From the sequence record NZ_CP085772.1: a stretch of 51,836 bases of DNA; one strand, given 5' to 3'. Every line of letters begins with the position of its first letter. Within the stretch, counting starts at the first letter, position 1. The notes below the pieces were generated by a model. That model did no database searches, was not told where the DNA came from, and was given only the letters and a program-made list of their open reading frames with translations. The position numbers and the translations under genes are program-made. Of this stretch, positions 1,869 through 11,371 are shown piece by piece. The stretch comes from a plasmid.

Positions 1869-3140
1869 TTACGCCAGTTTCGCTGCAGGAATATCTGACC
1901 ATCGTGTCGTATAAGCAGGAGAAAGCATCTCCCGTTTCATTTGCCATTCCGGGGCAATACCCCGCCCCGCAAACCATACTTTACCCAGCCCTGAGTTGTT
2001 GATCCCGTCCAGAACCCTCATCAGCTCAGCACTGTGAGGGCGTGGCGGGCGTTCGTCGAACAGCTGCAGCTGCGAAACGCCGGAGCCGGTGAAGTCATTC
2101 AGCATAACTCCGGCTTTGGCATACCGGTGTCCATCCCTCCAGATACGCTCCAGAGCCGTTGTGGCGGCTGCAATGATGTCCCTGGTGTCCTGAGTGGGTG
2201 TAAGAAGTTTTTCCGTAGCCACGTTGCCGTAGTAAGGTTCTTTAACGGCGAACGGAGACGTTTTGATGAAAACGGAAATATGCCGGCAATACTGGTGCTC
2301 TTTACGCAGCTTTTCAGAGGCCCGCTCTGCGTGCTGACAGATAGCCTGACGGAGTGACTCGTACTCCGTGATCTTCACGCCAAAACTGCGGCTGCAGACA
2401 ATTTGCTGTTTCGTCGGAGGGGCTTCCTCAAGCGAAAGGCAGCTTTCCCCGTTCAGTTCACGTACCGTTCGCTCAAGGACCACAGAAAAATTTTTGCGGA
2501 TGAAGGCCGGGTTCGTCAGGGCGAGATCGAGCGCGGTCTTAATGCCCAGCACATTCAGCTTGCGTGCAATACGGTTACCCACCCCCCAGATTTCTTTAAC
2601 CGGCTGCAGTGAAAGCAGTTTCCGCGTTCTCTGCGGATTTCCCCTGGTCAGAGCAAGTACGCCACGAAGCTGTTTCCACTCTTTTGAGGCCCACTGGGCT
2701 GATTTTGCAAGGGTCTTCGTTGGTCCGGCGCCCACGCCAATGGTCAGGTGGGTACAGTCATACACGTGCTGACGCAGCTGCCGGCCGAAGTCCTCAAGCT
2801 CCATACAGTGCTCCACGCCGGTCAAATCGAGGAACATCTCATCAATTGAATACTGTTCCACTCTGGGGGCCAGTTCCTCCAGGCAGTTCATCACGCGCGC
2901 CGACATCGAGGCGTAAAGTTCATAGTTACTTGAAAACGAATATATTTTTTCCGGGTACCTTTCGTTTTTTATCTGAAACCACGGAGTTCCCATTTTGATC
3001 CAGGGCTTCGCCTCGGCACTGCGAGCGATTACGTTCCCGTCGTTGTTGCTCAGGACGACTATCGGCTTTCCTTTCAAATCCGGTCGGAAAACACGTTCAC
3101 AGCTGGCATAGAAGCTGTTCACATCGGCCAGGGCAAACAT
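1869..3140 (-). CDS. umuC: Error-prone DNA polymerase V subunit UmuC (Y-family polymerase)
   Basis: 423 aa. N-terminus [15 protein letters not shown] is diagnostic of UmuC/MucB. Confidence 0.9.
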
Positions 3141-3571
3141 CAGTACATCTCCCTCGGGCGGTGGATGATATGCGTGACGACGCCAAAGATATCAAGCTCG
3201 TCGGGGTCAGGATAAATCGGCGACCAGGAGGCATTCATGGGCTGCAGCGTCAGTCGAGGCGTCAGCAGAAGCCGTTTAACCGTAAACTCCCCCTGTACGC
3301 TGGCGACAACGATATCGCCGTGCCGCGGCTTTTCAGCACTGTCCACAACCAGCAGATCGCCATTGTACAGACTACCGTCCGCCATGCTGTCTCCGCTGGC
3401 ACGCAGGTAGTACGTCGCGCTCGGATGCCGTATGCAGTAATCATGGAGATCCAGATCGGACTCGACATAGTCAGCGGCAGGGCTGGGAAAACCGCAGCTG
3501 GCCAGATCGGCAAACAATGGATGGGCCTGTGGCGGGTGTTCTTTCCCGGTGCTGAAAAGCTGTAGCTTCAT
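3140..3571 (-). CDS. umuD: UmuD (LexA-like self-cleaving SOS protein)
   Basis: Start MKLQLF preceded by AGGAGG. Contains the S24 peptidase fold (GDSM..K). Overlaps umuC by 1 nt. The longer six-frame ORF (to 3952) is an artefactual upstream extension. Confidence 0.85.
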
Positions 3572-3596: not shown

Positions 3597-3612
3597 CTGG
3601 TTATGTATACAG
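3597..3612. promoter_or_regulatory. LexA (SOS) box-like palindrome CTGGTTATGTATACAG upstream of umuD
   Basis: CTG-N10-CAG palindrome. Other strand reads CTGTATACATAACCAG, one mismatch from CTGT-N8-ACAG. Lies ~25 bp upstream of the umuD ATG. Confidence 0.55.
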
Positions 3613-3613
3613 T

Positions 3614-5560
3614 GTGCGCCGGGAGACCGGTAGAGATCAAGGGGTGAAAGTCCCCGACCATTGAAGGACCAGCAATCCACAAGGTCCCCGAGTCATGCGT
3701 TGCATACCGCGAGGTATGGGGCGAAGCGTTGACAGGGGTGTTGACAGGCCAGCCATTGAGCCACGAAATGTATATTAAATTACCGGGTGCCGACGTTGTA
3801 CTGTTAACGGAAGGCAACATCATAGGGTGCGATACTGCGAGTGCCACATGGACCCGGCGGGGTCTGAGACCCTGGCATGTCAATACGATCTCTACGCGGG
3901 AACCGGGAGATCTCCCCTCTGACCATCTGCCAGTGTCGGAGATGGCCCGCACCGGGAAGACGAGGAGTCATAGCCGGTGATGTACGGAGAGGAGAAGTCG
4001 GACTCGCTCATAGTAGCGGCGAAGCAGGCGAACAACCCGAAAGGAGCGGAGTCAGTGGAGCGAAGGAGCGGGGCCAAGGGGAACGCGGAACAGCCACACA
4101 TGCGCCGGACACAGAGCCGGGAAAGCATGTCACAGAGGCTGTCACGCGTGCGGGAAGCTGCGAAGCAGCGGAAGAAAGAACGGTTTACAGCATTGTTCCA
4201 CCTGCTGACAGTCGAAGCACTGGAAGCCGCATTCCTCTCCCTGAGCAGGAAAGCGGCCGCCGGAGTGGATGGCATCAGGTGGATGGACTACGCCGGAAAC
4301 ATGAAGAACAACATAACAGATCTGCACCGGAGGCTACATCAGGGCAGCTACAGGGCGCAGCCCGGCAGGCGTCACTACATCCCAAAAGCGGATGGAAAAC
4401 AACGCCCGCTCGGCATCGCCTCGCTGGAGGACAAGATCGTCCAGTATGCGCTGGTGAAAATCCTGAACGCAGTCTATGAAAACGACTTTATGGGGTTCTC
4501 ATACGGGTTCAGACCCGGGCGAAGCCAGCACGATGCACTGGACGCACTGGCCACAGGGCTGGTACGCACTAACGTAAACTGGGTACTGGATGCCGACATC
4601 AGTCAGTTCTTTGACAGGGTGAGCCACGAATGGCTGATCAGGTTCACAGAGCATCGGATCGGCGACCGGAGGGTAATCAGGCTCATACGTAAGTGGCTCA
4701 CAGCCGGGACGTCGGAGGAGGGTCAATGGCGAGCAACGGAGGAAGGCACCCCACAGGGTGCGGTCATCTCACCGCTGCTGGCAAACATATACCTCCACTA
4801 CGTCTTCGATCTGTGGGCGCATCAGTGGCGACGTCGCTATGCCACAGGCAATGTGGTAATGGTCAGATACGCCGATGACATCGTCATCGGGTTCGACAAA
4901 CGATACGATGCCCGGCGCTTCCGTATAGCCATGCAGCGCAGACTGAGGGAGTTCGGACTCACGGTTCACCCGGAGAAAACCCGTCTGATGGAGTTCGGCC
5001 GCTTCGCTGCCGAAAACCGTGCCATCAGGGGAAAAGGCAAACCAGAAACGTTCAACTTCCTCGGGTTCACGCACATCAGCGGGAAAGATCGCAACGGCAG
5101 GTTCATGCTGATACGAAAGACCCGCCGGGATCGGATGACGGCAACTCTGAAAGCCATCAAAGACGGTCTGCGAAGGCGCTGGCATTACTCAATCCCCGAA
5201 CAGGGAAAATGGCTCAGGAGAGTGGTTCAGGGATACCTGAACTATCACTCGGTACCGGGCAACTTCCCCACCATGCAGAAGTTCAGGACACACGTAACAA
5301 ACCTCTGGCGCCGGGCGCTCAGGCGCAGGAGCCAGAAGGATGATACGACCTGGACGAAAGCAAACAAACTGGCAGCCGCATGGCTACCAAGGGTTCGGGT
5401 TCTTCATCCATGGCCTGTGGAGCGGTTCACCGCCAGACACCCGAGGCAGGAGCCCGGTGCGTAAATCGCGCACGCCGGGATCTGTGCGGGGGGTATCCGG
5501 TAACGGGTATCCCTACCGCGACATATTTAACAGCGTGACGATAATCCAGATCGCCTGCCG
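3614..5560 (+). mobile_element. Bacterial group II intron (retroelement), complete or nearly complete; 3' boundary approximate
   Basis: Starts GTGCG (or GTGTG at 3612). The 5' ribozyme domains span about 360 nt. The RT/maturase ORF lies in domain IV. About 96 nt remain after the ORF stop for domains V-VI before IS1 begins. Confidence 0.75.
3977..5464 (+). CDS. ltrA: Group II intron-encoded reverse transcriptase/maturase (no recognisable C-terminal HNH endonuclease domain)
   Basis: RT motifs present, including YADD (VMVRYADDIVIGF) and the X/maturase region. 495 aa. Confidence 0.9.
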   Translation: MMYGEEKSDSLIVAAKQANNPKGAESVERRSGAKGNAEQPHMRRTQSRESMSQRLSRVREAAKQRKKERFTALFHLLTVEALEAAFLSLSRKAAAGVDGIRWMDYAGNMKNNITDLHRRLHQGSYRAQPGRRHYIPKADGKQRPLGIASLEDKIVQYALVKILNAVYENDFMGFSYGFRPGRSQHDALDALATGLVRTNVNWVLDADISQFFDRVSHEWLIRFTEHRIGDRRVIRLIRKWLTAGTSEEGQWRATEEGTPQGAVISPLLANIYLHYVFDLWAHQWRRRYATGNVVMVRYADDIVIGFDKRYDARRFRIAMQRRLREFGLTVHPEKTRLMEFGRFAAENRAIRGKGKPETFNFLGFTHISGKDRNGRFMLIRKTRRDRMTATLKAIKDGLRRRWHYSIPEQGKWLRRVVQGYLNYHSVPGNFPTMQKFRTHVTNLWRRALRRRSQKDDTTWTKANKLAAAWLPRVRVLHPWPVERFTARHPRQEPGA

Positions 5561-8844: not shown

Positions 8845-9013
8845 CAGCCCTGGCTCTGAAAAATGACCCGGGTATGCTATCACAGGCAGGAGCAGCACAT
8901 AATGGCCAGTCAGATGATGATGTATTTCTTTCCCGTAAGGCCGCTCAGTCTATATTCTTGCATATCAATCATTCAGGATGCCGGACAACTCACGTTTGCG
9001 AACAGAGAGATCG

Positions 9014-9634
9014 TTATTTGTTAGCGCTGGAGCAGACCCGAATTACTGTCATTTTAGAAACGCCCGCCAGGCGAGCTGTTTCTCGCAGCGATTTTCCATT
9101 GACCAGGCGCAGAGTGCGTATCAGTTCATGTTTCTGCGCATCGGCCACCCTGCCCCGGTATTTTCCTTCAGCTTTCGCCTTACTGATACCCTCTGACTGT
9201 CGACGTCGACGGTCTTCGTAATCTTTTCGGGCAATAGCGGCCAGCATATCCAGCATCATGCCATTTACGGCCTTCAGCATGCTTCGGGTAAAGTCATCAC
9301 TTACTGTGCTGGATAGCGCCAGATGGCTGGTCGGTAGATCAAGACTGACGATGGCCAGCTGCTTGTCTGTAATTTGCTTTCTGAGTGTCTCCCAGCCTGC
9401 ATCATCCAGGCGAGTGAGCCTGTCGACCTGTTCAATGAGAATCACATCACCAGGTTCCGCATCACCAAGAAGCCTGATCAGTTCAGGAAGATTCATTGTC
9501 GTACCGGAGACATTATCGATATACCAGCCAGCAATACGGTGTCCATGTTGGTTTGCAAACGCCTTCAGTGCATTTTTTGCCCGGCTGGCATCCTGTTCTG
9601 AAGTGGATGCCCGGAGGTAACCAAAAACGAACAT
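9014..9634 (-). CDS. Serine recombinase (resolvase/invertase family)
   Basis: MFVFGYLRASTSEQ catalytic-Ser N-terminus. C-terminal HTH. Confidence 0.8.
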   Translation of the reverse strand: MFVFGYLRASTSEQDASRAKNALKAFANQHGHRIAGWYIDNVSGTTMNLPELIRLLGDAEPGDVILIEQVDRLTRLDDAGWETLRKQITDKQLAIVSLDLPTSHLALSSTVSDDFTRSMLKAVNGMMLDMLAAIARKDYEDRRRRQSEGISKAKAEGKYRGRVADAQKHELIRTLRLVNGKSLRETARLAGVSKMTVIRVCSSANK

Positions 9635-9635
9635 T

Positions 9636-9740
9636 TTTTGTCCTAGTGGTAACATTTAAGTGGTACTGTTCATTATGGTATCACTTAAGTGGTAACAATA
9701 AAACTACCCGATACCTCTTGAGGTGGTACATATGAACTAT
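9636..9740. promoter_or_regulatory. Putative res site: four copies of AGTGGTA / TTAAGTGGTA motif upstream of the resolvase gene
   Basis: agtggtaaca, ttaagtggtac, ttaagtggtaac and gaggtggtaca lie within about 100 bp. Confidence 0.4.
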
Positions 9741-9780
9741 ACCCTAATGTGACATATTGGCGAGTGGTCTAGGATTGGTT

Positions 9781-9805
9781 AATAAAAAAGCCAGGGAATC
9801 CTGGC
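9781..9805 (-). terminator. Rho-independent terminator (gccagg-gaat-cctggc + T-run on minus strand)
   Basis: Perfect 6-bp stem followed by TTTTTTATT in the minus-strand transcript. Confidence 0.5.
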
Positions 9806-9823
9806 TCTTGGGTGAGCTGGTTG

Positions 9824-9901
9824 TTAGAAGAACCAGCGAATTAACTCTAAAAGCACAATGAGCGCTTTCAGAGCCTGGATGACTTTTGTAAGAGTCTCCA
9901 T
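9824..9901 (-). CDS. Candidate type I toxin, DinQ-like 25-aa hydrophobic peptide METLTKVIQALKALIVLLELIRWFF
   Basis: Strong RBS AAGGAGAG 6 nt upstream of ATG. Terminator immediately downstream. The ALIxLLELIR core resembles E. coli DinQ. Confidence 0.4.
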   Translation of the reverse strand: METLTKVIQALKALIVLLELIRWFF

Positions 9902-10166
9902 TTTCTCTCCTTTTCTGGAGAGTAGAACACCGAATGAACCCTTCCACTCTGTCATTCGGTTTTTAATCTTTAATGTCAGTTAAAGATAGTTCCACTCAGG
10001 TAATGGTACTGACTCAGCACCACCTGTTAGTCAGCCAGAGTCTAATCAATGTGTTAGCTGGCTCTTGTAAATCAGATTGATCAGAGTAAAGAGTGGGGGG
10101 TATCATTCAACCGTCAGTTAAAGATAGTTCCATTCCAGATCTGAGTACCAGCTTAGTTTTGGATGT

Positions 10167-10197
10167 AAAAAAGCCCGATCACCAGTCGGGCTTTTTT
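10167..10197. terminator. Bidirectional intrinsic terminator hairpin (A-run, gcccga...tcgggc, T-run)
   Basis: aaaaaagcccgatcaccagtcgggctttttt. Confidence 0.45.
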
Positions 10198-10250
10198 ACA
10201 TCTAAACCCGCTTGAAGCCTTTGACCTGCCCCCACGATTAGATACAACAC

Positions 10251-11084
10251 TCAGTTAGTAACGTCGGAATCTTCATTCTCAGAATGACCCTTTCTCCAGC
10301 CCGCTGCAAATTCAGACGGTGTCTGATAATTCAGCGTGGAGTGCGGGCGGCATTCGTTATAATCCTGCCGCCAGTCATTAATAATTTTCCTGGCATGAAC
10401 GATATCGCTGAACCAGTGCTCATTCAAACATTCATCGCGAAATCGTCCGTTAAAGCTCTCAATAAATCCGTTCTGCGTTGGCTTGCCCGGCTGGATTAAG
10501 CGCAACTCAACACCATGCTCAAAGGCCCATTGATCCAGTGCACGGCAAGTGAACTCCGGCCCCTGGTCAGTTCTTATCGTCGCCGGATAGCCTCGAAACA
10601 GTGCAATGCTGTCCAGAATACGCGTGACCTGAACGCCTGAAATCCCAAAGGCAACAGTGACCGTCAGGCATTCCTTTGTGAAATCATCGACGCAGGTAAG
10701 ACACTTGATCCTGCGACCGGTGGAAAGTGCGTCCATGACGAAATCCATCGACCAGGTCAGATTGGGCGCCGCCGGACGGAGCAGCGGCAGACGTTCTGTT
10801 GCCAGCCCTTTACGACGTCTTCTGCGTTTTACGCCCAGGCCACTGAGGTGATAAAGCCGGTACACGCGCTTATGATTAACATGAAGCCCTTCACGGCGCA
10901 GCAACTGCCAAATACGACGGTAGCCAAAACGCCTGCGCTCCAGTGCCAGCTCAGTGATGCGCCCTGATAAATGCGCATCAGCAGCCGGACGGTGAGCCTC
11001 ATAGCGGCAGGTCGACAGGGATAAACCTGTAAGCCTGCAGGCACGACGTTGCGACAGACCGGTCGCATCACACATCAACATCAC
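10251..11084 (-). CDS. IS3-family transposase OrfB (DDE integrase core), expressed by -1 frameshift with OrfA
   Basis: 277 aa, rve-type core with DDE motif. Confidence 0.85.
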
Positions 11085-11107
11085 GGCTTCCCGCTTCTGG
11101 TCTGTCG

Positions 11108-11371
11108 TCAGTACTTTCGCCCAAGAGCCACCTGAAGCGCCTCTTTATCCAGCATGGCTTCGGCAAGCAGCTTCTTGAGTCTGGTGTTCTCTTCCTCAAG
11201 CGACTTCAGGCGCTTAACTTCAGGCACCTCCATACCGCCATACTTCTTACGCCAGGTGTAAAACGTGGCATCGGAAATGGCATGCTTGCGGCAGAGTTCA
11301 CGGGCGGGTACCCCAGCTTCGGCTTCGCGGAGAATACTGATGATCTGTTCGTCGGAAAAACGCTTCTTCAT
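11108..11371 (-). CDS. IS3-family transposase OrfA (HTH)
   Basis: 87 aa, [20 protein letters not shown]... leucine-zipper tail. Confidence 0.85.

Follow-up and report, generated by a model that had tools for sequence, protein, structure and literature searches.

The dinQ-agrA/agrB locus of the Escherichia coli K-12 chromosome (PMC3567139, PMC5066626) and the plasmid-borne DqlB-agrB systems are the closest described relatives of a locus that we analyzed in a 51,836-nucleotide (nt) stretch of plasmid DNA, sequence record NZ_CP085772.1 (hereafter the window). In the model proposed for dinQ, sequence 2, located in the target of the antisense RNA AgrB, pairs with sequence 3 in the processed, active mRNA and the Shine-Dalgarno (SD) sequence (sequence 4) is open; binding of AgrB frees sequence 3, which then sequesters the SD, and RNase III cleaves the duplex (PMC5066626). 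The primary transcript differs in that its 5′ end, sequence 1, covers the target by forming stem S1 and so holds the SD closed (PMC5066626). Genes resembling dinQ have been known from plasmids since 2016 (PMC5066626), and in 2025 DqlB-agrB of pOXA-48 (IncL) and of the IncX3 plasmid pOXA-484 were reported as addiction modules that are toxic, rescued by agrB and plasmid-stabilizing (PMC12365149, PMC12317039). The window locus is very likely a complete type I toxin-antitoxin module of this DinQ/Dql-AgrB family, carried on the IncR-type backbone of a resistance plasmid, beside a resolvase gene. Directly observed were the homology of its peptide, 5′ untranslated region (UTR) and small RNA (sRNA) to the family, the complementarity of the two RNAs, and a conserved promoter and terminators. 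The module appears to be intact and to represent a divergent, unannotated lineage, unusually compact in layout, whose peptide ends in “...LELIRWFF”; systems of this kind are known and have been validated on plasmids, and the lineage is what is new.

For the main pairwise comparison we used the homologue on E. coli plasmid pGF47-C, which is 79% identical (21% diverged). Other relatives were plasmid dinQ loci annotated by the Prokaryotic Genome Annotation Pipeline (PGAP), dqlB of pOXA-48, and loci found by scanning one genome per species for the UTR motif. The scan returned 77 matches, about 60 of which were chance matches outside Enterobacterales and 13 of which were genuine enterobacterial loci. 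Record NC_019154 was used in place of JN626286.

The toxin open reading frame (ORF) lies on the minus strand at 9824–9901 and consists of 25 codons and a stop (ATG at 9901, TAA at 9826–9824) encoding METLTKVIQALKALIVLLELIRWFF, a hydrophobic peptide with a grand average of hydropathy (GRAVY) of 1.23. A listed ORF at 9824–9955 is the same frame prolonged to an upstream ATG (43 residues). The SD, GGAGAG at 9905–9910 (minus), is followed by three A residues and the ATG, aligns with the SD of the family, and equals sequence 4 of the dinQ model. An intrinsic terminator for the toxin mRNA is present at 9784–9807 (minus), where AGCCAGG-ATTC-CCTGGCT precedes a run of six T residues and forms a hairpin of −15.1 kcal/mol. 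An earlier reading of the letters alone (the original prediction) had proposed this 25-codon ORF with its SD and terminator, and all three were confirmed. A consensus scanner missed the terminator, probably because A-T pairs extend the stem into the T run, and hairpins were assessed by folding instead. At the same place in pGF47-C the terminator stem differs yet stays complementary (GGCCAGA/TCTGGCC), and the toxin ORF is retained there; it differs by an in-frame indel, by five synonymous substitutions and by conservative exchanges of hydrophobic residues.

The original prediction had also called the peptide DinQ-like, a view that the family models bore out. The curated cut-offs are 30 bits for NCBIfam DinQ (NF041472, “damage-inducible type I toxin DinQ”, an equivalog), 35 bits for NCBIfam DqlB (NF041473) and 40 bits (gathering) for Rfam AgrB (RF02891). 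The 25-residue peptide scored 29.7 bits against DinQ (E = 5.8e-7), the 43-residue ORF 28.0 bits and the pGF47-C homologue 16.6 bits. Identity was 52% to K-12 DinQ, 60–65% to a group of DinQ-like peptides ending in “...LELIRMFF”, and 43–48% to DqlB. In an alignment of 14 family peptides, the window peptide had all six invariant residues (I8, L11, L18, E19, I21 and R22), and it is, like the others, a small, single-helix, hydrophobic peptide with the signature residues. Membership in DqlB was rejected (15.4 bits, and the central AV.A..NA insert is missing). There was no NCBIfam match of the peptide to the Hok, TisB, ShoB or Zor families and no match in a local copy of Pfam for the peptide or its longer database versions; the extended ORF has a weak match to the newer Pfam family PF28061, “DinQ”, in precomputed tables.

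Upstream of the toxin, the sequence GTCAGTTAAAGATAGTTCCA occurs exactly at 9975–9994 and 10113–10132 (read on the minus strand, TGGAACTATCTTTAACTGAC at 9994–9975 and 10132–10113). The original prediction had reported these 20-bp copies, 138 bp apart, and we found that the repeat grows to 23 nt with one mismatch (22/23 identity, 9975–9997 against 10113–10135). With as many as three mismatches allowed, the 20-mer had two matches in the whole 51.8-kb window, where 0.00 were expected from 100 shuffles; the pair is not a product of chance. Two complementary RNAs that are transcribed divergently must leave a direct repeat in the DNA that encodes them; the K-12 dinQ/agrB locus likewise contains one, an exact repeat of 25 nt.

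The second copy coincides with the start of an AgrB-like antitoxin sRNA gene. Rfam AgrB matched 10114–10199 on the plus strand across model positions 1–84 of 84 (39.6 bits, E = 1.3e-4, in a scan of 9000–11000). The predicted sRNA of about 87 nt (10113–10199, plus) would comprise a 5′ tail (10113–10135), a stem-loop (10134–10163) and a terminator (10165–10199), and its predicted fold leaves about 20 nt single-stranded at the 5′ end, followed by one stem-loop and a strong terminator hairpin (−30.1 kcal/mol), as does that of K-12 AgrB. Repeat copy 2 (10113–10135) is thus the single-stranded antisense tail. A sigma-70-like promoter at 10077–10106 (plus; TTGATC, an 18-nt spacer, TATCAT; 9/12 consensus matches) is positioned so that the RNA would start at 10113 or 10114. 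In pGF47-C the hexamers and the 18-nt spacing are kept (TTGATT-18-TATCAT) although the spacer sequence differs, an A-U pair of the sRNA stem-loop is replaced by G-C in a compensatory manner, and Rfam AgrB matches at the same place at a sub-threshold 37.0 bits; two plasmid dinQ loci scored 58–59 bits. The N-terminus METLTK had suggested ZorO/OrzO, which was rejected (Rfam OrzO-P 21.3 bits against 60, E = 2), as was ShoB/OhsC (Rfam ohsC 25.5 bits against 50, E = 0.44).

There was a single AgrB match in the window and only two copies of the 20-mer, one of them in the UTR, so no second sRNA gene (an agrA paralogue) was found. The original prediction was right that agr-like antisense RNA lies near the toxin, and its proposal that the repeats represent tandem agrA/agrB-like genes did not hold, since the other copy aligns with the target position in the UTR. 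Likewise, the feature lies where it had been placed, and the right end given for it (10135) was too short, as the sRNA and its terminator reach 10199.

The first copy (9975–9997, minus), some 75 nt before the ATG in the 5′ UTR of the toxin mRNA, is the predicted sRNA target. Complementarity between the repeat-containing RNA and this UTR, which the original prediction had named as a check, covered 22 of 23 nt, 20 of them perfect, giving a 23-bp duplex of −35.2 kcal/mol. The locus therefore shares with the family a divergent AgrB-type sRNA that is complementary, at its 5′ end, to UTR sequence preceding the SD. In each of the 17 family loci examined, the locus's own target is repeated upstream, with 23–29 of 30 positions identical, while the sequence itself differs between lineages, indicating that sRNA and target changed together. 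In a 7×6 cross-lineage matrix of duplex energies the cognate sRNA/UTR pairs were the most stable, and the window UTR gave −53.2 kcal/mol with its own sRNA versus −23 to −39 kcal/mol with foreign sRNAs.

The UTR as a whole also belongs to the family. An alignment of 17 5′ UTRs had 37 invariant columns, and the window sequence aligned over the whole UTR length with those of dinQ and dql. RNAalifold recovered three stems from these sequences (SL2, SL4 and the SD hairpin), with compensatory changes in 13 of 24 consensus pairs, and the window UTR retains all three. Its SL2-like hairpin (10009–10034, minus), supported by the alignment and by compensatory pairs in RNAalifold, holds the family-invariant ACAGGUGGUGCUG. 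The SL4-like hairpin (9930–9959, minus) is an inverted repeat, CCGAAUGA...UCAUUCGG, with a conserved GACAG loop motif, and its stem covaries across the family (at one pair, UA in 8, CG in 7, GU in 1 and AU in 1). A candidate anti-SD element, GUUCUACUCUCC at 9917–9928 (minus), corresponds to sequence 3; its 3′ part can pair with the SD and its 5′ part with GAGUGGAAC (9997–9989, minus), the sequence-2 equivalent within the target. The possible pairings are GAGUGGAAC with GUUCUAC (9928–9922), and CUCUCC (9922–9917) with GGAGAG (9910–9905). Both sides of the SD/anti-SD pairing have changed between lineages (CUCUCC/GGAGAG in the window, CUCCCC/GGGGGA in pGF47-C).

We assessed the predicted switch by the mean computed probability that the SD is unpaired, with K-12 dinQ as control. 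For K-12 this probability was 0.05 for the +1 RNA, 0.52 for the +44 RNA and 0.06 for the +44 RNA with the target blocked, in agreement with published experiments. For the window it was 0.20–0.29 with 5′ ends from 10086 to 10038, fell to 0.00 when the target was blocked, and was 0.0–0.05 for 5′ ends at or beyond 10098. Cofolding of the sRNA with the UTR gave a ddG of −26.2 kcal/mol and a closed SD hairpin.

These features suggest how the module might work. The minus strand would give rise to a structured mRNA of about 300 nt, the last part of which encodes the hydrophobic peptide of 25 residues; like DinQ and DqlB, this is presumably a toxin of the inner membrane. The AgrB-like sRNA of about 87 nt would be transcribed divergently, from the conserved sigma-70 promoter on the plus strand. 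Without the sRNA, the target segment GAGUGGAAC could pair with the anti-SD GUUCUACUCUCC, so that access to the SD would be partly open; binding of the sRNA would release the anti-SD, which would then lock GGAGAG into a hairpin. The long sRNA/UTR duplex would be a likely substrate for RNase III. Upon loss of the plasmid the sRNA would no longer be replenished, the toxin would be translated, and the plasmid-free cell would be killed or arrested in growth (post-segregational killing). We infer transcription of both RNAs, the structural switch and a stabilizing role; toxicity, post-segregational killing and cleavage by RNase III are proposed by analogy with the described systems.

The locus shares with K-12 dinQ a small hydrophobic peptide with an ...ALI.LLELIR... 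core, a long structured 5′ UTR with SL2, SL4 and the SD hairpin, a divergent sRNA of about 85 nt whose free 5′ tail pairs some 75–105 nt upstream of the start codon, a predicted switch through the anti-SD element, and a 5′ leader that could cover the target. It differs in being plasmid-borne, in having one sRNA gene where K-12 has two, and in lacking a LexA box. The duplex is 20–23 nt rather than 34 nt and has another specificity sequence; the peptide starts with ATG and ends in RWFF, whereas that of K-12 starts with GUG and ends in RFLLQLLN; the divergent units are about 80–100 nt closer together; and a canonical toxin promoter is missing.

DqlB-agrB resembles the window locus in being on plasmids, in having just one agrB-like sRNA and in the architecture of its UTR, and its sRNA promoter and start region are similar (GACGGTTAAAT in pOXA-48, GACGGTTGAAT in the window). 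DqlB is, however, 31 residues long with an extra AVVAVSN-type insert, and pOXA-48 has a recognizable toxin promoter (TATACT) and a 35-nt duplex. By analogy, the window module would be expected to stabilize its plasmid as DqlB-agrB does. With hok/sok, zorO-orzO, shoB-ohsC and tisB-istR1 the locus shares the general logic of an antisense RNA set against a small membrane toxin whose mRNA has a structured, processed 5′ UTR, and with hok/sok also post-segregational killing, but it is not a member of these systems by sequence or structure.

The closest peptides are the “...LELIRMFF” DinQ-like ones, which PGAP names DinQ and which have the same KALIVLLELIR core and FF end. Examples of carriers, both plasmid and chromosomal, are Citrobacter pS39-2, IncC pNDM-TAEC1, Serratia and Rahnella. 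In contrast to the window peptide, which begins METLTK, they begin MIDK or MGAFIDK and pass the NCBIfam DinQ cut-off (39–55 bits); their loci also have a TATAAT/GTTAGC toxin promoter and a spacing of 187–242 nt between the sRNA copy and the target. The PGAP-named plasmid relatives have, like the window, an AgrB-like sRNA (58–59 bits). The IncX1 plasmid pNMEC31_31 carries a K-12-type DinQ. As in the window, the gene adjoins a recombinase gene in IncX1 and in pS39-2/pET49. No AgrB match with E < 0.01 accompanied the DinQ-like ORFs of Erwinia tasmaniensis pET49 and of pNDM-TAEC1. The stretch separating the target from the sRNA terminator looks rearranged in pET49, and the insertion sequence (IS) IS1 lies directly upstream of the ORF in pNDM-TAEC1; both toxins are possibly degenerate or orphan.

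Several results weigh against a complete and working module. The peptide (29.7 bits) narrowly missed the NCBIfam DinQ cut-off, and the sRNA (39.6 bits) narrowly missed the Rfam gathering threshold and was absent from a scan run at that threshold. In pGF47-C the SD-unpaired probability was 0.10–0.22 with the target open and 0.10 with it blocked, almost no difference, and the thermodynamic support for the switch is thus partial and comes mainly from the window sequence. Within the lineage there is no covariation of the antisense/target pair, whose sequences are identical in both known variants. The toxin has no minus-strand sigma-70 promoter reaching 9/12 consensus matches, the best candidates having 7–8/12. 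A TATAAT −10 element followed by +1 GTTAGC is present in 10 of 15 other family loci, and this block is absent from the window lineage. Finally, in the Klebsiella pneumoniae plasmid JXJF01000029.1 (1053–2198) an IS5-family element interrupts the 5′ UTR of the toxin at a point equivalent to window 9968, and neither the sRNA gene nor its target lies within 2 kb, which makes this a naturally disrupted module. On that plasmid, gene callers fuse codons of the IS end to the toxin ORF and so create “hypothetical proteins” of 65–72 residues.

The missing promoter block, the lack of any other recognizable toxin promoter and the short copy-to-target spacing (135–138 nt in the window lineage, 187–242 nt elsewhere in the family) could mean that the locus is a decaying remnant, in which a deletion of about 90 nt removed the toxin promoter and leader and only the sRNA remains functional, for example as an orphan antitoxin guarding the cell from related toxins encoded by other plasmids; the best-conserved signal is indeed the sRNA promoter. 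We regard this as improbable. Between the window and pGF47-C, across 21% divergence, the ORF, the SD/anti-SD pairing, the terminator stem, the sRNA stem and the sRNA promoter hexamers have been kept, with compensatory and synonymous changes in the toxin gene, its SD hairpin and its terminator. A leader segment complementary to the target is also kept in both lineages. Moreover, foreign UTRs pair far less well with the sRNA than its own UTR does, so cross-protection by an orphan sRNA would be weak.

A candidate 5′ leader of the toxin mRNA (10090–10113, minus), analogous to S1/sequence 1, can pair with the target region; the 10113–10090/target duplex was −19.8 kcal/mol (z = −4.1, none of 300 shuffles as stable), and that of pGF47-C was −18.5 kcal/mol. 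This pairing begins at the first nucleotides, as it does for S1 in K-12 (+1 to +34) and for the pOXA-48 leader, and the leader complementarity suggests that the toxin mRNA starts near 10112–10116. The only −10 candidate we can offer, TATCTT at 10121–10126 (minus), is weak (7/12 matches), lies inside the sRNA gene, is also present in pGF47-C and is speculative; on the minus strand from 10200 to 9990 nothing better was found. A 19-nt inverted repeat (9932–9950/10090–10108, 79% complementary) joins the candidate leader to the SL4-like loop and its 3′ side. It dominates the predicted fold, with the SD closed, for 5′ ends at or beyond 10104, and it is not clearly conserved in pGF47-C.

One tentative explanation, which we consider less likely than not, is that the toxin and sRNA units have collapsed onto one point, with starts on opposite strands within a few nt of 10113 and each promoter inside the region transcribed from the other. 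The DNA around this start is an imperfect palindrome. Were this so, the toxin 5′ leader and the sRNA 5′ tail would be near-copies competing for one site in the UTR, and the strong sRNA promoter, through occlusion of the toxin promoter or transcriptional interference, would add a layer of toxin control undescribed for dinQ or dqlB. Such a layout would also account for the missing canonical toxin promoter.

The original prediction had further suggested a stabilization or SOS-responsive module, and the closest curated match of the peptide, the damage-inducible DinQ, together with umuDC on the plasmid, could be taken to mean that the locus encodes a LexA-repressed stress toxin induced with umuDC, as opposed to an addiction module. 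We found no CTG-N10-CAG LexA box in 9700–10300, although the same search found the control box, CTGTATGATTATCCAG, in the K-12 dinQ promoter. The toxin promoters of the plasmid relatives IncX1, pS39-2 and pOXA-48 lack a LexA-type box as well, and plasmid homologues act as addiction modules. SOS control is therefore unlikely, and a stress toxin of this kind is a very improbable reading of the locus. A candidate box is present only elsewhere, at 3597–3612, where CTGGTTATGTATACAG fits CTG-N10-CAG about 26 nt upstream of the likely start of umuD. The plasmid thus probably has one SOS-controlled operon, umuDC (1869–3571, minus; umuC at 1869–3140 and umuD at about 3140–3571). A group II intron (Rfam group-II-D1D4-6, 186.6 bits; 3647–3872, plus), accompanied by an ltrA-type reverse transcriptase ORF (3977–5464, plus), is inserted some tens of bases upstream of both umuD and the LexA-like box and may affect the context of the umuDC promoter.

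That the 20-nt repeats are binding sites for a resolvase, partition or iteron-type protein beside a fortuitous ORF is scarcely credible: a resolvase gene with repeated sites (9644–9735) does adjoin the locus, but those sites are unrelated in sequence to the 20-nt repeat, one copy coincides exactly with the AgrB 5′ tail and the other with the target position in the UTR alignment of the family, and the similarity of the ORF to DinQ is significant.

We also determined how widely the proposed DinQ/Dql-AgrB module is distributed. The 431-bp module was present in 116 PLSDB records at a coverage of at least 80%, nearly all at 98% identity or more, and the carriers were mostly Klebsiella, Enterobacter, Raoultella and Citrobacter. 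Out of 16 carriers sampled, 7 were IncR (alone or with IncF/IncN), 8 were IncF-type and 1 was IncX5, and the module usually adjoined Rpn-family and resolvase genes. Among species-representative genomes, an identical peptide or one differing by a single residue was found in Entomohabitans teleogrylli and Raoultella ornithinolytica.

None of the records examined carried an annotation of the 25-residue toxin or of the sRNA. The 25-residue sequence was absent from the protein collection, in which the 43-residue extended ORF appeared only as a “hypothetical protein” (613 contigs), and a homology search with that ORF returned only near-identical “hypothetical proteins”. The peptide falls 0.3 bits under the NCBIfam threshold and the sRNA 0.4 bits under that of Rfam, which creates a blind spot in detection. 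PGAP names some plasmid dinQ-like genes DinQ or DqlB, and the survey in the pOXA-48 study counted dqlB homologues in 2 of 489 IncR plasmids (0.4%). That figure is hard to reconcile with 7 IncR plasmids among our 16 sampled carriers, and the survey probably missed the lineage, although the datasets are not identical. The suggestion that such a plasmid-borne module had escaped routine annotation thus stands for this lineage in the records examined, and fails for plasmid dinQ-like genes in general, which are known (PMC5066626, PMC12365149, PMC12317039).

One sampled carrier holds blaKPC-2. IncR and IncF-type plasmids of Klebsiella and Enterobacter are major carriers of carbapenemase and extended-spectrum β-lactamase genes, and an overlooked addiction module in the backbone would help to account for the persistence of these plasmids. 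The module would also matter for plasmid-curing strategies; in the pOXA-48 study, curing of pOXA-48 killed cells unless agrB was supplied. Knowledge of type I systems is unchanged by the finding, which is useful for annotation.

The surroundings were as the original prediction had described them, with a resolvase on one side, an IS3-family element on the other and umuDC elsewhere on the plasmid. In pNMEC31_31, pS39-2, pET49 and IncFII plasmids, modules resembling dinQ are repeatedly found next to ParA-type partition genes and a gene for a site-specific recombinase, either a serine resolvase or a tyrosine recombinase, which points to a “stability island” layout that recurs in different plasmid groups. 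In the window, the resolvase ORF (9014–9655, minus) has upstream of it, at 9644–9735, three direct or inverted copies of TGGTA(A/T)CA(T/C)TTAAGTGGTA that resemble a res site. The IS3-family (ISSen4-like) element extends from about 10207–10219 to about 11400 and was inserted only some 10–20 bp past the sRNA terminator; other carriers have different sequence, an IS5-family element, at this point. Within the IS3-family element, an IS1222-type programmed frameshift element was identified at 11024–11141 (minus, 156.6 bits).

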